A DNA stretch of 64,000 bases from an uncultured Chloroflexia bacterium (GTDB lineage Bacteria > Chloroflexota > Limnocylindria > Limnocylindrales > CSP1-4): assembly GCA_963838285.1 (NCBI GenBank), contig CAWIQP010000004.1, positions 397,752-461,751 of the forward strand. Direction: 5' to 3'. Under the pieces are notes generated by a model that saw nothing but the letters and a program-made list of their open reading frames with translations, was not told the DNA's origin and ran no database searches. The translations under genes were made by a program, and so were the position numbers. Shown here piece by piece: positions 31,549-37,746 of the stretch. The first letter of the stretch is position 1. The number at the start of each line of letters is the position of its first letter.

Positions 31549-31596
31549 TTGGCGTCCCCGGCGGGATTCGAACCCACGACCCGCCGCTTAGAAGGC
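31549..31596 (-). repeat. 48-bp direct repeat identical to the 3' part (anticodon stem to CCA) of tRNA-Arg(TCT). An att-like site, attR of an integrated islet
   Basis: 31549-31596 is identical to 33519-33566. Identity stops exactly in the anticodon stem. Confidence 0.85.
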
Positions 31597-31793
31597 CAAA
31601 GCGGCTATGCGCAATAGCACCACGCTCAGAGGCCCGAGCGTAACGTGTCCAGTTAGCGTGTCTTGCGCATGGCTCTCCCGCCCAAGTCATGGCTGGAGGA
31701 TTGCTTAGTTGTTGGCCTTGGTCGCGCCAACACAATCCCTCCGGCGTGCAACACCTAGGGGCACTCGGACGTTAGTCTGGTCAGGGAGGCATC

Positions 31794-32294
31794 TTGGAAG
31801 CTGCGACCCGGCTGAGTCCGGCCCATGCTCGTGAACTCCAGACGGCATTCAGGGTCCACATGCCCTGGCTCCGGCGGCGGATCGCGTTGATCGTTGGCGA
31901 TCCCGACGAGGCGTCGGACATCGCCCAGGAAGCCTTCGCCCGCGCCGTGGAGAACTGGCCGCTCGGCTCACGCGACGATGTGGCCCGCTGGCTTGCGACG
32001 GTCGGCATCAGGCTGGCAATCGATGCGCTGCGCCGACGCAGGCGTTGGGGTTTCACGCCGCTCCACGAAACCGACGCGACCTGGGCTCTGGATGTCGACC
32101 CCGACCTCTGGCGGGCGATTGCGACGCTGAAGCCGACAGCTCGTGCCGCGTTGCTGCTCACCGTGCTCGATGGATACACACAGGACGAGGTCGCGGCCGC
32201 GCTCAGCGTGAGGCGCGGCACCGTCGCAAGCTGGCTCTTGCGAGCACGCGACGAGCTGCGACCCCTCATCGGGAGTTCCGAAGATGGACGATAA
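31794..32294 (+). CDS. ECF-type RNA polymerase sigma factor (sigma-70 regions 2 and 4)
   Basis: Region 2 DIAQEAF. Region 4 ARAALLLTVLDGYTQDEVAAALSVRRGTVASWLLRARDEL. TTG start behind a GGGAGG RBS. Confidence 0.8.
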   Translation: MEAATRLSPAHARELQTAFRVHMPWLRRRIALIVGDPDEASDIAQEAFARAVENWPLGSRDDVARWLATVGIRLAIDALRRRRRWGFTPLHETDATWALDVDPDLWRAIATLKPTARAALLLTVLDGYTQDEVAAALSVRRGTVASWLLRARDELRPLIGSSEDGR

Positions 32295-33423
32295 GTTCGA
32301 CGAACGATTGCGCGAGCGGCTCCGGTCGCTCGACGCGGCAGTGCCTCCGGAAACTCGCGTGGTTGGCGTGGCTCCCATCACCAGGCGCCGATCCGCCGTC
32401 CGACTGGTCGGCGTGCCATCGCTCGGGTTGGCGGCAGCCCTCCTGATCGTTCTCGCGGCCGTCATGGTTGCGGGCGGCGCGCCCAAGGCCGCCGGGCCGG
32501 CACGCAGCGAGCCTGCACCGACTTCCGCGGCGCCGACCTCTGCCACGCAGACCTCGGCCGCGCCGACCTCGGCCTCGCGAGTGCTGGGCCAGCCTGACGT
32601 CGTCATGGGGTCGGCCGGCTTTCCGGTTTCGATCGACGGCCAGGCGGTCTACCGCTTCGAATACGCGACGACCTGGGAGAGCCTGACCGGAAGCTTTTTG
32701 GTCGCCGCAGAAGCGCCATCCGGAGCGCCAAGCTGCCCCGGGGCATACCCGTCGCCCACGCCAATGCCCAATGCGGAGTCCGACCTCTTTGCTGATTGCC
32801 CGGAGGTCATCCTCGGCTACACGTCCTCGTCCCAGAGCAGTGGGTTCTCGGGCACGGCGGTCGCGCCAAAAGGGCTGCCGCTCGCAGCCATATCGACCTG
32901 GGGTGGCCATGTTGTGGTGTTCCGGGCCCACACCCACGACCCGGAAGCAGCTCAGTGCGAACGTGCCGATCTTGCTCGATGCGAGGCTGCCCTTGTCGTC
33001 GAGTCGGTCGTCTGGCCGTATCTCCCGTCGAGCATCGACGGCGAGCATGTCTATCTGGGCAGCGACGCGTGGGGCGGCGAAATCGAGAAACTCAGCAAGA
33101 GTTTCTTGATTGGTGGTTTGGTTGGAATGAGCGAGGGCAACGTGGTGAGCGAATGCAAGTCCTCAGCCGCCGCCCGAGAGCTCGCGGTCAACTGCGCCAG
33201 CTTCGACACCGAGTTGGGCGGAGCCTGGATCGCACCGGAGAGCGCAGCCGAGCTGACAAACGGGTGGGTTGTGGTTGTGCGCGCTCATTTCGACCAGACG
33301 CTTGCGGCCCAATGCCCGGCGGACATCAGATACGAGTGTCCGCAGGCCGTCATCGTCGACTCGGTCGTGTGGTCTTCGAACCCGTACGCCTCAAACGGCG
33401 CGACTCCGACACCCTACCGTTAG
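32284..33423 (+). CDS. putative anti-sigma factor: short cytoplasmic N-terminus, one TM, Ala/Pro/Thr-rich linker and a Cys-containing extracytoplasmic domain
   Basis: Its start overlaps the sigma-factor stop, so the two are translationally coupled. The TM is LGLAAALLIVLAAVMVAG. Four CxxxxxxxC-like pairs in the ecto-domain. Confidence 0.6.
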   Translation: MDDKFDERLRERLRSLDAAVPPETRVVGVAPITRRRSAVRLVGVPSLGLAAALLIVLAAVMVAGGAPKAAGPARSEPAPTSAAPTSATQTSAAPTSASRVLGQPDVVMGSAGFPVSIDGQAVYRFEYATTWESLTGSFLVAAEAPSGAPSCPGAYPSPTPMPNAESDLFADCPEVILGYTSSSQSSGFSGTAVAPKGLPLAAISTWGGHVVVFRAHTHDPEAAQCERADLARCEAALVVESVVWPYLPSSIDGEHVYLGSDAWGGEIEKLSKSFLIGGLVGMSEGNVVSECKSSAAARELAVNCASFDTELGGAWIAPESAAELTNGWVVVVRAHFDQTLAAQCPADIRYECPQAVIVDSVVWSSNPYASNGATPTPYR

Positions 33424-33519
33424 GTATCGCCGGTGGTCACGCCTCCTCATGTCGAGACGACCGCGGTTGTGGGCTGTCGCACTCAAGCGGCATGTCGTCC
33501 CGCGCTCAAACAGGGAAGT

Positions 33520-33595
33520 TGGCGTCCCCGGCGGGATTCGAACCCACGACCCGCCGCTTAGAAGGCGGCCGCTCTATCCACTGAGCTACGGGGAC
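33520..33595 (-). tRNA. tRNA-Arg (anticodon TCT), CCA encoded
   Basis: Cloverleaf folds by hand: acceptor GTCCCCG/CGGGGAC, D-arm GCTC/GAGC, anticodon loop CTTCTAA, T-arm GTGGG-TTCGAAT-CCCGC. Confidence 0.9.
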
Positions 33596-33864
33596 ACCGG
33601 TTGGACGCCGCGGCTAGCGTACCCGAAGGCAGGGTGCCGGCCAAGTCGGTCGAGCCCGACTGCGATGGGAAACGGACGCGCCGCCTGGTCTGGTCAGACC
33701 GCCCGCGCGCGGCCCGCGCCACATCCACGGCGGACGACGACCGCGGGCCGAGACCACAGGCAATCGTTCTTTCGTCCCATCGTTGCGCCGCACGACCGGT
33801 GCTAGACTCCGGTCTTCTTCCGTCATCGACCGGTGGCCGGCTGCGCATTTCGGAGGTCGTCATC

Positions 33865-35415
33865 TTGGCATCGCTCTCGCTCGAGCTCGATCGGGCCGAC
33901 CTGCCGGTGACACCCGACCCGCGACTCGCGGCCTCGACTCCGGCGGGCGACGCGCGGGTCTCGACCGCGGGCCAGCTGGCCCTCCAGCTTCCGAGCGAAC
34001 TGCCGCGCCTCTCCATCGAGCCGGAATGGAAGGATCAGCAGCGGCTCTGGGGTCACAGCTTCCATCCCATGTGCTCGTATCTGGCGAGCTTCCCGGCCGG
34101 TCTGGTCCACGCCTTCATCGCCCGCTACACGCGCCCCGGCGACGTGGTCCTGGACCCGTTCAGCGGCCGCGGAACGACGCCTCTTCAGGCTTGCGCCGAG
34201 GGTCGGATCGGCGCCGGCAACGACCTCAACCCGTTCGCCCAGATCCTGACCGCGGCCAAGGTCGATCCGCCCACGAAGTCCGACATCAAGACTCGCGTCG
34301 CGTCGCTCCGTCTCGCCTGGGCCGCCTCCGCCGCCGAGTGGAACGCCCTCGCCGACGCGATCGTGGCGGAGCCGGGCTCGCCAGACATCGTGGTCCCGGG
34401 ACCGGGCAGCCGGCCGATCTCCACCCCCGCGCGGTCGGACTCCGGATCGTCCGGACGATCGAGCACGTCGAGTAGATCGAACGATCGCACCGGCTCCAGC
34501 GCGATCCGGCCGGACTCCGCGGTGCCGGCCGAAGTCGCGCTCGCCTTCCACCCTCGAACGCTCGCTCAGCTGCTCTACCTCCGGGCCGGCCTCAACCCGG
34601 ACGATCGCACCGATCGTTTCGTCCTGGCCACCCTGACGGGCATCCTTCACGGCAAGAGCGCCAGCTACCTCTCGGCGGTCATGCCCAACACGTTCAGCAT
34701 GGCGCCGCGCTACGTCAGGGACTTCGTCGCGCGGACCGACTTCCACTCGCCCGAGCGCGACACGTTCGCGCTCCTCGAAGACAAACTGCGCCGCCTCTAC
34801 CGCCAGCCGCTGCCCGCATCCAGGGGGATCGCCCTTCTCGGCGACGCTCGCGACGCCGGCGTCCGCTTCCGCGAGGCGCTGCGCGCCCGTGGCCTGCCCG
34901 AGCGAGCCCGGCTCGTGGTCACTTCCCCACCCTACCTGCGAGTGGTGAAGTACGGCTACTACAACTGGCTGCGGCTGTGGCTGCTCGGCTACGACGCCTC
35001 GGCCATCGACGAGCTCCTCGACGACGCCCATCACCGGGACGCCTATCTCGTCTTCATGCGCGAGGTCCTGAGCGGTCTGCGTTCCGCCCTGGCCGACGAC
35101 GCGGTGATCGCCCTCGTGATCGGCGACGTCGAAATGGACCGCGGCCGGCCCGCGAACGGTGGCGTGGGCCTGGCCGAGTCCGTCTGGGAGCTGGCCGCCG
35201 CGCCTGAGGGCTATCGGCTCGCGGGCATCGCCACCGACGACGTAGCCGCGGGCCGGAAGATGACGAAGCTGTGGGGCGACGAGGCCGGACAGGCCACCAA
35301 ACTGGATCGGATCCTGGTTCTGGCGACGAGCGAGGCCGGTCGCCGCCGGGCCATCAACGGCGCCACTCTCCCAATCGACTGGGAGTGGCCGCCGCGCTCG
35401 CCGCGTCTGCTGTAG
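33865..35415 (+). CDS. DNA methyltransferase (N6-adenine/N4-cytosine amino-MTase), orphan
   Basis: HP...DPFSGRGTT (motif I, PF01555-like) and VVTSPPY (motif IV) are separated by a ~250-aa low-complexity-containing insert. TTG start behind a GGAGG RBS. The longer ORF from 33601 would abut the tRNA. Confidence 0.7.
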   Translation: MASLSLELDRADLPVTPDPRLAASTPAGDARVSTAGQLALQLPSELPRLSIEPEWKDQQRLWGHSFHPMCSYLASFPAGLVHAFIARYTRPGDVVLDPFSGRGTTPLQACAEGRIGAGNDLNPFAQILTAAKVDPPTKSDIKTRVASLRLAWAASAAEWNALADAIVAEPGSPDIVVPGPGSRPISTPARSDSGSSGRSSTSSRSNDRTGSSAIRPDSAVPAEVALAFHPRTLAQLLYLRAGLNPDDRTDRFVLATLTGILHGKSASYLSAVMPNTFSMAPRYVRDFVARTDFHSPERDTFALLEDKLRRLYRQPLPASRGIALLGDARDAGVRFREALRARGLPERARLVVTSPPYLRVVKYGYYNWLRLWLLGYDASAIDELLDDAHHRDAYLVFMREVLSGLRSALADDAVIALVIGDVEMDRGRPANGGVGLAESVWELAAAPEGYRLAGIATDDVAAGRKMTKLWGDEAGQATKLDRILVLATSEAGRRRAINGATLPIDWEWPPRSPRLL

Positions 35416-35504
35416 CTTCACCGCCCCGGGCTCAGGCCGAGGCCCAGGGTCGGGCCGTGGCGGCGGGCGCGACGTCCCGGCGTCCGGGCCAATACAATCG
35501 CCCT

Positions 35505-35732
35505 ATGCAGCCGATGTACGAAGCCGGCGACCTCGCCGCGATGGACCCGCTCGTCCTGATGAAGAACCTCGACCACGTCCGAATGTCGAGCCGGCGCCTG
35601 AGCTACATCCTTCAGCAGCAGGTCCACCTGTACACGCCGACGGCCAACGAACTGCGCGACCGCATCGATGCCTACGTGGAGGCCGAGCGCCAGATCGAGG
35701 CCGAGATGGCTCGCCGCCAGCTTCGCTCCTAG
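35505..35732 (+). CDS. hypothetical small protein (75 aa)
   Basis: Non-repetitive. No RBS. Low confidence. Confidence 0.3.
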   Translation: MQPMYEAGDLAAMDPLVLMKNLDHVRMSSRRLSYILQQQVHLYTPTANELRDRIDAYVEAERQIEAEMARRQLRS

Positions 35733-35750
35733 CGAGGCGAGCCCGAGCGC

Positions 35751-35820
35751 AGCGGGCCGGGCGGTTTCAGCGGGCCGCGCGGTTTCAGCGGGCCCGGCGG
35801 TTTCAGCGGGCCGCGCCGAC
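35751..35820. repeat. tandem repeat, about 3.7 copies of an 18-bp unit (agcgggccgcgcggtttc)
   Basis: Direct reading. Immediately 3' of the small ORF. Confidence 0.85.
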
Positions 35821-36168
35821 GAAGGCCCCGCCGCGCCGAAGACCCTCGGACGCTTCCTCCGATGTGTCCGCACGCGCCGGGACGGGGGCCATGACGCCGA
35901 CCAGCGCGCGAGGGCGACGCTCGGACTCCTGATTCACGACCTCGGCCACGAGTCCGGCGAGGCGCGGCATCTCGACCAGACCGAAGGCGATCCCATGTTC
36001 GGCAAGCTCGCCGAAACCCCAGCCGTGGTAAAGGCCTCGGCTCGCGACGTGGCACATCTCGTCGTAGAGCTCGGGCCAGCCGACGCGCCTTCGCCGATGG
36101 CAGAACCGCACGAAATCGAAGGCAGCGTCGTTGGCGGCGGGATCGTCGGGATGCCTGCGCGAATCCAT
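35803..36168 (-). CDS. hypothetical protein (121 aa)
   Basis: ATG behind a GGAG RBS. Composition is protein-like (FDFVRFCHRRRRVGWPELYDEMCHV...). Confidence 0.4.
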   Translation of the reverse strand: MDSRRHPDDPAANDAAFDFVRFCHRRRRVGWPELYDEMCHVASRGLYHGWGFGELAEHGIAFGLVEMPRLAGLVAEVVNQESERRPRALVGVMAPVPARADTSEEASEGLRRGGAFVGAAR

Positions 36169-36655
36169 GGGTGCACTCCGCTCCTCTACCGTGCCAGACC
36201 GAATCCAAACCACCTGGTGACGACCGCAGGCTCGGTCCCGTTGGGACTCGGTCCCCCCGCGTGTCTCTCCTCCGCGGTAAGTGGGTGCATGCTAGGCGGG
36301 CCCCAGCCCGCGGGGAAGAGCTTTCTCCACCAACTCTTCCACCAAGTTTTCCACAGAACAGCCGTTCTAAGACCGTCTGTTCGAGCCGCCCGAGCGAACC
36401 GGCCCGGAGCCGGCTCGAACCGCCTCCAGCCTGGCCGGACCGGACCGCGAATCGACCGCGCGGAAGAACGCCCGGACGCGGCCACCACATGTCCGGGACG
36501 ACACCGGACCGTGCGCCGGCTCGCCTGTCGAAACGGCCCAGATTCGCCACAGGCGCCCGGCACGCGGCCACGGCCGGGCCGGTCGGCTTTCGGCGCGCCC
36601 GGGTCGCACGAAGAACGCCCCCGGGGCGCGGTCCGGGGGCGTCGGTATCGGCGAG

Positions 36656-36732
<77 letters not shown>

Positions 36733-36864
36733 ACGGACGGCCGCCCTGCGGCGGGCCGGGCGGGATGATAACAGGCCTCCCCGCGGCGCGCCAACCGGCG
36801 CGGTGACTACCGTCGGTCCCGACCCTCCCGATCTGCGGGCGGAGACGTTCCGAGCGGGCGCGGA

Positions 36865-37746
36865 CTACATACGGTGCGATTCCAGGAACGCCCTTATGCC
36901 GTCGGCGACCTGCTGGAAGCTCGACTCGCCGATCACCAGGCCGTAGTGCGAATGGGCCCCGAAGGGTTCGTAGGTGCCGCCGAGCCAGTCGGCCAGCCGC
37001 TCGGCGCCCGTCGCCGAGGACGTTCCGTCCAGGCCTGCGCCGACGACCAGGATGGGCACGCCGACCAGACGGGACCGGTCGATGGCGACGCCCTCCATGA
37101 TTTCGCGCTTGACCTGGCCCGATTCGTGCGGCTTCTGCCCGAAGAGGTGCTGCAGGCGGACGATGTCGGCGATCGTGAGGTCGCGATTATCGCGCTGAAG
37201 CTTTTCCGGCAGCGTCTCCCAGCCGATGTGGTCGCGGCCGTAGACGTCGGGGATCTCGCGCAGCTCGTGCGGCCGGACGGGCGGGCGCAGGTCGCGGGGC
37301 AGCTCGCTGTCGAGCAGCACGACCGCTCCGACGGAATGCTGCTCGGCCGCCTTGAGCGCGAGCAGTCCTCCCATGCCGTGCCCGACCGCCACGGCGCTGG
37401 GGCCGAGCTTGTCCATGACCGCCACGACATCCTCGACGTAGTCGCCGAAGCAGACCGCGGCGATCTCCGTCGTCTCGGACCAGAAGTGGTTGCGCAGATT
37501 GAGGGCGTGGCCCTCCCAGCCGCGGCTGGCGAAGTAGGAGAGGTACCGCTCCCAGATCCACGAACCGGTCAGCTCGCCGTGGATGAACAGCAGCGGACGG
37601 CGCCGCGATCGTCGCTCGGGCATCCACGATTCCACGTACAGGCCGCGCTCGGACAGCTCGATCTCGTCCTTGCGGATCGGCCGCCCGTTGGCGCCGACGG
37701 GGTGCGGTCGGGCTACGTGCAGCTCGTCGGGTGTGTTGTCACTCAT
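36865..37746 (-). CDS. alpha/beta-fold hydrolase
   Basis: Nucleophile elbow GHGMGG, catalytic His near the C-terminus. Confidence 0.8.
   Translation of the reverse strand: MSDNTPDELHVARPHPVGANGRPIRKDEIELSERGLYVESWMPERRSRRRPLLFIHGELTGSWIWERYLSYFASRGWEGHALNLRNHFWSETTEIAAVCFGDYVEDVVAVMDKLGPSAVAVGHGMGGLLALKAAEQHSVGAVVLLDSELPRDLRPPVRPHELREIPDVYGRDHIGWETLPEKLQRDNRDLTIADIVRLQHLFGQKPHESGQVKREIMEGVAIDRSRLVGVPILVVGAGLDGTSSATGAERLADWLGGTYEPFGAHSHYGLVIGESSFQQVADGIRAFLESHRM

Follow-up and report, generated by a model that had tools for sequence, protein, structure and literature searches.

A conserved solitary amino-methyltransferase gene of the alpha class, resident between two tRNA genes in the Limnocylindria (Chloroflexota)

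Background

Some amino-methylases stand alone in the genome and are kept by whole lineages. Dam in the Gammaproteobacteria, CcrM in the Alphaproteobacteria and Zim/HVO_0794, the N4-methylcytosine (m4C) methylase of the haloarchaeal CTAG motif, are solitary, taxon-wide and vertically conserved (PMC4752239, PMC5867850). Orphan methyltransferases are far more often conserved at the genus-to-class level than those of restriction-modification (R-M) systems; for the latter the share that is conserved even within a genus is just 9% (PMC4752239). Signatures of orphan regulators described in the same study are target sites that cluster at oriC or in promoters and sites that stay unmethylated. Here we investigate a gene for an amino-methyltransferase of 516 residues that lies between a tRNA-Arg and a tRNA-Glu gene of an uncultured Chloroflexia bacterium (Limnocylindria; Limnocylindrales; CSP1-4), in a stretch of 64,000 nucleotides from contig CAWIQP010000004.1 (assembly GCA_963838285.1, positions 397,752 to 461,751), which is called the window throughout.

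A DNA amino-methyltransferase belongs to the alpha class when motif X/I comes first, the target recognition domain (TRD) second and motif IV last (PMC7544214). In the structural scheme of Samokhina and Alexeevski this is the class D (alpha) topology, with the TRD placed between Hd3 and strand S7 (10.1101/2023.12.13.571470). An SPPY or TSPPY motif is a hallmark of m4C, and one alpha-class SPPY enzyme, M.DraR1 of Deinococcus radiodurans, has been shown experimentally to produce m4C, in the sequence C(m4C)GCGG (PMC6712171, PMC10855626).

How does the window methylase compare with the solitary enzymes? Dam has the alpha motif order, as it does. Zim/HVO_0794 shares with it the SPPY motif and, as far as a product can be read from sequence, m4C; it has the beta order, however, and the idea that this haloarchaeal orphan belongs to the same family was rejected because it is a beta-subtype enzyme. 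CcrM also has the beta order, and none of the three shows sequence-family identity with the window methylase. For Dam, CcrM and Zim the target motif and the role are known, whereas the window methylase is known here from its sequence.

The Limnocylindria (formerly Ellin6529) are abundant uncultured Chloroflexota of soil, peat and freshwater. No paper on methylation in this group was found in the literature. An earlier note on the window had described the methylase as an orphan with an unusual order and spacing of motifs, and had offered two readings of it: a solitary regulatory enzyme, or the remnant of a defence or mobile island left at a tRNA hotspot. Is the gene the debris of such an island? 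Or, is it a settled gene of its lineage?

Results and discussion

An intact gene of the alpha class

We read the gene, with a probability of roughly 70%, as an intact solitary DNA amino-methyltransferase of the alpha class that is resident in the Limnocylindria, probably makes m4C and has an epigenetic role. It is a further case of the known "conserved orphan methylase" kind and not island debris. All the elements that the earlier note listed are present: the open reading frame (ORF) of 516 residues, both tRNA genes, the spacing of DPFSGRGTT and TSPPY, an ORF of 75 residues (orf75), an 18-bp tandem repeat (x3.6) and an ORF of 121 residues (orf121). The gene and its parts are as follows.

33852..33856, plus strand: ribosome-binding site GGAGG, 8 nt ahead of the TTG start, read from the sequence
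33865..35415, plus strand: coding sequence of the alpha-class (class D topology) SPPY amino-methyltransferase, 516 residues
34054..34179, plus strand: motif X / motif I block, HSFHPMCSYLASFP...DVVLDPFSGRGTT, residues 64-105, putatively binding S-adenosylmethionine (AdoMet), invariant in the clade
34276..34797, plus strand: helical inserted domain, residues 138-311, with the conserved GILHG and MPNTFSMAPRYV motifs (AlphaFold order, conservation)
34372..34509, plus strand: low-complexity loop rich in Ser, Gly, Pro and Arg, residues ~170-215 (model confidence, gapped alignment columns)
34921..34935, plus strand: catalytic motif IV, T-S-P-P-Y, residues 353-357 (sequence, conservation)

The longest plus-strand ORF between the two tRNA genes spans 33601-35415 (604 residues). 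The supported start is the TTG at 33865, because GGAGG stands 8 nt before it and because public calls for this protein and its homologues agree: the public gene call (P0001) has 516 residues and is 100% identical, and close homologues share the start position. An ORF of 532 residues opposite the gene was rejected as a shadow ORF of high-G+C DNA; G+C at third codon positions in the plus frame of the methylase is 0.86, as in other window genes. The idea that its two halves are separate genes was also rejected, since the protein is a single ORF in all homologues, including relatives of ~400 residues that lack the low-complexity insert, and it is contradicted as well by the AlphaFold model, which has one split Rossmann core.

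To what class does the enzyme belong? The match to the Pfam family PF01555 (N6_N4_Mtase) is well above threshold (58.3 bits against a cutoff of 26.7, E=1.4e-15), but it comes as two stretches in reversed order. The N-terminal DPFSGRGTT block (residues 97-105) falls on profile positions 160-212 of 221, at the C-terminal end, and the aligned counterpart of the TSPPY block in beta-class enzymes of the Protein Data Bank (PDB) is their N-terminal SPPY. D97 and S354 are 257 residues apart. The order of motif IV before motif I that PF01555 has as a beta-class family is thus absent, and the protein is not a canonical beta-class enzyme. The enzyme is a circularly permuted member of the PF01555 clan with alpha topology. 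The PADLOC model for a Type II methyltransferase (PDLC03325, 426 positions) is matched at E=5.8e-38, with motif I N-terminal in both protein and profile. The order X/I-TRD-IV is the canonical one of the alpha class and looks odd only against the beta-ordered PF01555 model; to that extent alone did the description of the motif order as unusual stand, for it is textbook alpha class and common to M.DraR1 and to thousands of relatives. An exhaustive search of representative sequences gave 4166 clusters at E<=1e-3 and 205 at E<1e-30; because of the former number, and of the existing PADLOC model, the architecture is not rare.

Sequence matches of the family profile in the PDB are to DNA amino-methyltransferases only. 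The motif X / I block aligns to the motif X-I region of beta-class DNA methyltransferases, and the AdoMet half is nearest in sequence to beta-class DNA methylases (TTHA0409, CcrM, PvuII and a eukaryotic N4-cytosine methylase) and not to Dam, whose Pfam family (PF02086) gave no match. From NCBIfam came nothing but weak matches in motif I to CcrM-type models, with scores far under the cutoffs of those models. The PHROGs matches were generic phage "DNA methyltransferase" families, and tblastn against phage and plasmid records found distant relatives only.

The key residues of motifs I and IV are invariant or nearly invariant across three alignments (A1, A2 and A4). In A1 and A4 none of S354, P355, P356 and Y357 varies; in A2 both prolines are invariant, and S354 and Y357 are nearly so. 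The pattern S-P-P-Y/F, written in PROSITE style, is a signature of N4-cytosine methyltransferases, and the window protein matches it with V-T-S-P-P-Y at residues 352-357. Because TSPPY is the m4C hallmark, the enzyme is probably N4-cytosine-specific.

M.DraR1 is the nearest experimentally characterised enzyme that we identified. Both of its halves are collinear with the family profile (97.6% and 96.8%, hhalign probability). The two proteins share an N-terminal DPFxGxGTT, an NP(F/L)...AK helix, a central domain and a C-terminal TSPPYL...Y...LxWLGY half, with 26-30% identity over the aligned parts only. The window methylase differs in its middle domain and has an insert that is predicted to be disordered. 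The settings of the two genes also differ: M.DraR1 is plasmid-borne, found in a single species and paired with an Eco29kI-type endonuclease, whereas the window gene is chromosomal, lineage-wide and unpaired. On the D. radiodurans CP1 record (NC_000959.1; locus L088, 21579-22882) the M.DraR1 gene is split across two overlapping frames, with ambiguous bases near, and RefSeq annotates only the 258-residue C-terminal (SPPY) half. Sequence searches against this record therefore see only half of M.DraR1.

Predicted structure and the inserted domain

The AlphaFold model of the methylase, built on 80 homologues, has a mean predicted local distance difference test (pLDDT) score of 84.5 and a predicted template modelling (pTM) score of 0.85. 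Its elements run H78-88, E94-97, H104-111, E115-120 and H123-133, then the insert (138-311), and then E322-325, H328-341, E348-353 (with the SPPY), H391-408, E409-420, H436-448, E451-459 and E480-487 (H, helix; E, strand). The model has a single Rossmann core that is split by a helical insertion between strands 2 and 3. This predicted order confirms the class D / alpha topology, and the helical domain of ~175 residues occupies, in the model, the position of the alpha-class TRD.

Inside this helical domain lies the low-complexity loop of ~45 residues. The mean pLDDT of 10-residue blocks is 46-53 over residues ~190-210 and residues 198-210 are below 50, so the loop is predicted to be disordered, as are the N-terminal residues 1-34. 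In the alignments the loop varies in length among close homologues and is absent from the ~400-residue relatives. Foldseek of the model against the PDB gave weak matches, the best being AviRa (E=2.5e-4).

Could the enzyme have been recruited to methylate an exocyclic amine of tRNA or rRNA? Such a role would explain a conservation like that of a housekeeping gene. The tRNA N2-methylguanosine methyltransferases Trm11, TrmN and Trm14 (UPF0020, PF01170) have 15-23% identity to the window methylase and lack its inserted helical domain; in Pfam the methylase scores 13.7 bits against PF01170, where the cutoff is 22.3, and has no THUMP match, which places it outside UPF0020. We consider an RNA substrate quite improbable.

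A resident gene of the Limnocylindria

With each species represented by one genome, the scan gave 439 genomes that encode a relative of the methylase. The best 80 of the 439 have 64-90% identity, and 78 of these 80 are titled as Chloroflexota or Candidatus Limnocylindria/Limnocylindrales metagenome-assembled genomes (MAGs). The other two (L064 and L073) are contigs with the full arrangement of methylase, orf75 and orf121 that were deposited under Verrucomicrobiia MAGs; these labels probably reflect mis-binning. Gene order was compared in 80 genome loci (L001-L080) and 28 metagenome loci (L093-L120), 108 in all, each of ~11 kb and with a methylase 51-90% identical to that of the window. The neighbours in the window are as follows.

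33520..33595, minus strand: tRNA-Arg(TCT) (ARAGORN and Rfam), conserved upstream neighbour, with repeated integration on its 3' (left) side
35505..35732, plus strand: orf75, 75 residues, predicted helical hairpin, usual downstream neighbour of the methylase
35750..35813, no strand: 18-bp x3.6 tandem repeat in the convergent orf75/orf121 spacer
35803..36168, minus strand: orf121, 121 residues, conserved, convergent to orf75, without a family match
36656..36732, minus strand: tRNA-Glu(CTC) (ARAGORN and Rfam), conserved downstream neighbour

The order tRNA-Arg, methylase, orf75, orf121, tRNA-Glu, alpha/beta hydrolase, DUF1015 recurs among the relatives. In the 80 genome loci orf75 is present 75 times and orf121 73 times. 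The adjacency of methylase and tRNA genes, which the earlier note had proposed to look for in related genomes, was found: tRNA-Arg(TCT) is upstream in 45 of the 56 loci whose upstream flank is 4 kb or longer, and tRNA-Glu(CTC) stands downstream of the methylase in 48 of 60 loci, with the alpha/beta hydrolase and DUF1015 genes next, as in the window. The spacer between orf121 and tRNA-Glu varies from 0.28 to 4.2 kb. Gene order is kept in the metagenome loci as well, where the methylase is 51-69% identical to that of the window.

The identity of the methylase between loci follows that of the hydrolase (Spearman rho 0.90; hydrolase against DUF1015, 0.83). Its median dN/dS (the ratio of nonsynonymous to synonymous substitution rates) is ~0.18, against 0.14 for the hydrolase, and its catalytic residues are invariant in the clade. 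The composition of the gene is native to the window, with a G+C content of 0.70-0.71 as in the flanks. Because of this synteny, the co-divergence with the neighbours, the dN/dS and the composition, the gene is taken to descend vertically: it is resident, vertically inherited and under purifying selection across the Limnocylindria. With its place in the chromosome unchanged in hundreds of species, the methylase is a strong candidate for an epigenetic system of the whole lineage, and the closest parallel is the haloarchaeal CTAG methylase.

The integration hotspot lies on the other side of tRNA-Arg

Could the methylase nevertheless be a decaying piece of some mobile or defence island that had once inserted itself at a tRNA gene? 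There is a genuine hotspot here. An exact direct repeat of 48 bp, made of the 3' part of tRNA-Arg, occurs twice in the window (31549-31596 and 33519-33566), and the identity stops sharply on both sides.

31549..31596, no strand: 48-bp exact copy of the tRNA-Arg 3' part (att-like), left boundary of an inserted segment of 1.9 kb, outside the methylase unit

The bracketed segment of 1.9 kb holds a gene for an extracytoplasmic function (ECF) sigma factor (31794-32294) and an overlapping ORF of 379 residues (32284-33423), both missing from nearly all related loci. No integrase was found in the segment 31549-33566, whose appearance is that of an integrated element, either small or decayed. Seven related loci (L011, L016, L025, L031, L040, L050 and L063) have incomplete copies of tRNA-Arg(TCT) 0.9-3.9 kb away from the intact gene. 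In two of these (L050 and L063) the copy lies between the tRNA gene and the methylase, and the distance from tRNA to methylase is 2.6-3.5 kb. These recurrent partial copies mark tRNA-Arg(TCT) as an integration hotspot of the lineage, and the methylase is its stable flank.

The hotspot of the earlier note thus stood as far as tRNA-Arg is a recurrent site of integration, but the att-like repeat brackets 31549-33566, on the side of the tRNA opposite to the methylase, and no second copy of the tRNA-Glu 3' part occurs in the window. Nor does the methylase have the marks of a tRNA island: the repeat is elsewhere, the G+C content is like that of the flanks and synteny is conserved. The wider methylase family is mobile, which speaks for an island. 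Against it are the invariant catalytic residues, the dN/dS of 0.18, the native composition and a position kept down to 51% identity in the ancestral order tRNA, methylase, orf75, orf121, tRNA. We regard the reading as an island remnant as essentially refuted, and as very unlikely indeed.

No partner at the locus, and relatives in defence modules

In the window no nuclease, specificity subunit or helicase was found with Pfam within ~14 kb on each side of the methylase, and there were no homologues of HerA, NurA or DrmE in the window or the 108 related loci. The description of the gene as solitary therefore holds at the scale of these loci.

Outside the Limnocylindria the family is scattered: Bacillota, Deferribacterota, Haloarchaea, Methanomassiliicoccales, bacteria of the candidate phyla radiation (CPR), Sumerlaeota and Fidelibacterota. 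Ten of these contexts were inspected. In four the methylase stands with a HerA-like DUF87 ATPase and a NurA-like protein of ~455 residues (Deferribacter pDF308, a Halorarius plasmid, Bacillus paralicheniformis and Thermaerobacillus; L081, L082, L084/L085 and L089). The ATPase matches HerA models, and the partners are mutually homologous across the four. Two further contexts (Thalassobacillus and Clostridium; L087 and L092) have DrmE (PF24957) and a large helicase directly downstream of the methylase. The remaining four have, one each, a DEAD/ResIII helicase neighbour, an unannotated gene of 304 residues 4 bp downstream, a second PF01555 methylase as neighbour, and the methylase alone beside an IS66 element. 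Two of the modules, the HerA/NurA-like one of Thermaerobacillus and the DrmE one of Clostridium, are cargo of Tn7-like elements; that of Clostridium has TniB, TniQ/TnsD and TnsE. Among relatives from outside the Limnocylindria whose context is known, the nearest (P0131, 48% identity) belongs to a HerA/NurA triad.

The triad of methylase, HerA and NurA-like protein looks like an R-M-like defence system. No paper describing it was found in the literature, and PADLOC has no model for its NurA-like partner. The set of DrmE, helicase and methylase is a DISARM-like module with an amino-methylase of the window methylase's family. The methylases of these modules, of ~400 residues, have 30-48% full-length identity to the window protein. 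They share with it the GILHG / MPNTFSMSPxYV middle domain and the SPPY...NWxRLW stretch, and PDLC03325 is the best PADLOC model for both. Unlike it they are patchy and cross-phylum, lack the low-complexity insert and have HerA/NurA-like, DrmE or helicase partners.

Does the window methylase, then, still serve a working restriction or defence system, with its nuclease encoded elsewhere in the genome? The modules of its 30-48% identical relatives point that way, and so does M.DraR1, whose endonuclease sits 10 ORFs away from it. However, no nuclease, helicase or ATPase partner accompanies the gene over the ~14 kb on each side or at any of the 108 loci, and class-wide synteny with co-divergence is atypical of R-M methylases, so few of which are conserved even within a genus. 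An unlinked R-M pair is in our judgement unlikely.

A possible path and role

In the reading that we favour, of a solitary resident methylase, the N-terminal half with motifs X and I to III would bind AdoMet, the helical domain of ~175 residues after strand 2 would act as the TRD and the C-terminal half, with TSPPY, would be catalytic. The ancestors were probably methylase components of mobile defence modules; the nuclease partner would have been lost in the Limnocylindria lineage and the methylase retained under purifying selection. The enzyme most likely methylates one short motif genome-wide, and the mark would serve the cell itself, in gene regulation, in the timing of replication or repair, or to label its own DNA; Dam, CcrM and the haloarchaeal CTAG methylase are the precedents.

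Several points weigh against this reading. The 64-kb window and the loci of ~11 kb leave room for a partner elsewhere, as the distance between M.DraR1 and its endonuclease illustrates. The 439 genomes are positives only, so that they give no class denominator for a criterion of at least 50% of species (PMC4752239). DNA as the substrate, m4C as the product and a role in epigenetics or regulation are inferences. Finally, the middle domain is unusually conserved across phyla for a TRD, as it might be if the family had a common substrate and no sequence specificity.

A more ambitious form of the same reading is that every member of the Limnocylindria bears an m4C mark at one motif, laid down by an enzyme from a HerA/NurA-type module that now regulates replication or transcription in the manner of Dam or CcrM, perhaps together with orf75. 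We put this forward tentatively, as a possibility at clearly less than even odds. A universal motif, if it exists, would be a useful marker for the methylation-based binning of Limnocylindria contigs in long-read metagenomes. The gene would also be a clear example of a defence-module methylase turned resident after the loss of the nuclease. It reveals no new kind of enzyme or system; what it adds are the lineage-specific, predictedly disordered loop and a traceable derivation from defence-module methylases.

orf75, orf121 and the spacer between them

The product of orf75 has exactly 75 residues in its relatives, with no indels and a mean column identity of 88%, and is confined to contigs of the Limnocylindria type (450 clusters). 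AlphaFold predicts a confident helical hairpin (pLDDT 92.5). No family match was found for it, and Foldseek against the PDB gave nothing significant. For orf121 no family or PDB sequence match was found (Pfam, NCBIfam, PADLOC, PHROGs, PDB).

Might the methylase and orf75, perhaps with orf121, form one functional module, with the small helical protein as a regulator or a targeting factor of the enzyme? In most loci orf75 is on the same strand, 9-140 bp downstream of the methylase; it is 72-87% identical where the methylase is down to 51-69%, and it is restricted to this lineage. Yet a protein of ~700 residues comes between the methylase and the downstream genes in three loci (L068, L071 and L079), and orf75 is inverted in two others. 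The hydrolase, DUF1015 and both tRNA genes are equally syntenic, so that the linkage may just mark a quiet chromosomal region; orf75 offers no fold or family match to argue from, and no orf75-like gene stands beside the distant members of the methylase family. We find a joint module doubtful, though it has a few points in its favour.

The three loci with the ~700-residue protein directly after the methylase (L068, 6510-8588; L071, 6290-9502; L079, 6459-9447) are from deeper-branching genomes. In L071 and L079 a PspA/IM30-like gene follows that protein and orf75 is ~3 kb downstream; in L068 neither the PspA-like gene nor orf75 was found within the locus.

Many relatives have short tandem repeats in the convergent orf75/orf121 spacer (35733-35802 in the window; equivalents in L002-L074), with unrelated units and periods from 5 to 50 bp. 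A specific function for the 18-bp repeat was rejected, since relatives hold unrelated repeats in the same place; the x3.6 array of the window is an instance of a hypervariable spacer and not a conserved element.

Other features of the region

The flanks, over ~14 kb on each side, are metabolic and carry genes for GH31 enzymes, a sugar ABC transporter, LacI, the ECF sigma factor, the alpha/beta hydrolase, DUF1015 and adenosine deaminases. Rfam over 33000-37200 matched only the two tRNAs. A scan of 33400-36800 for promoters and terminators found no terminator and nothing informative for the methylase. The sole sigma-70-like promoter match in this interval, at 36765-36794 on the minus strand, lies ~30 bp upstream of tRNA-Glu and has a TG-extended -10 element.

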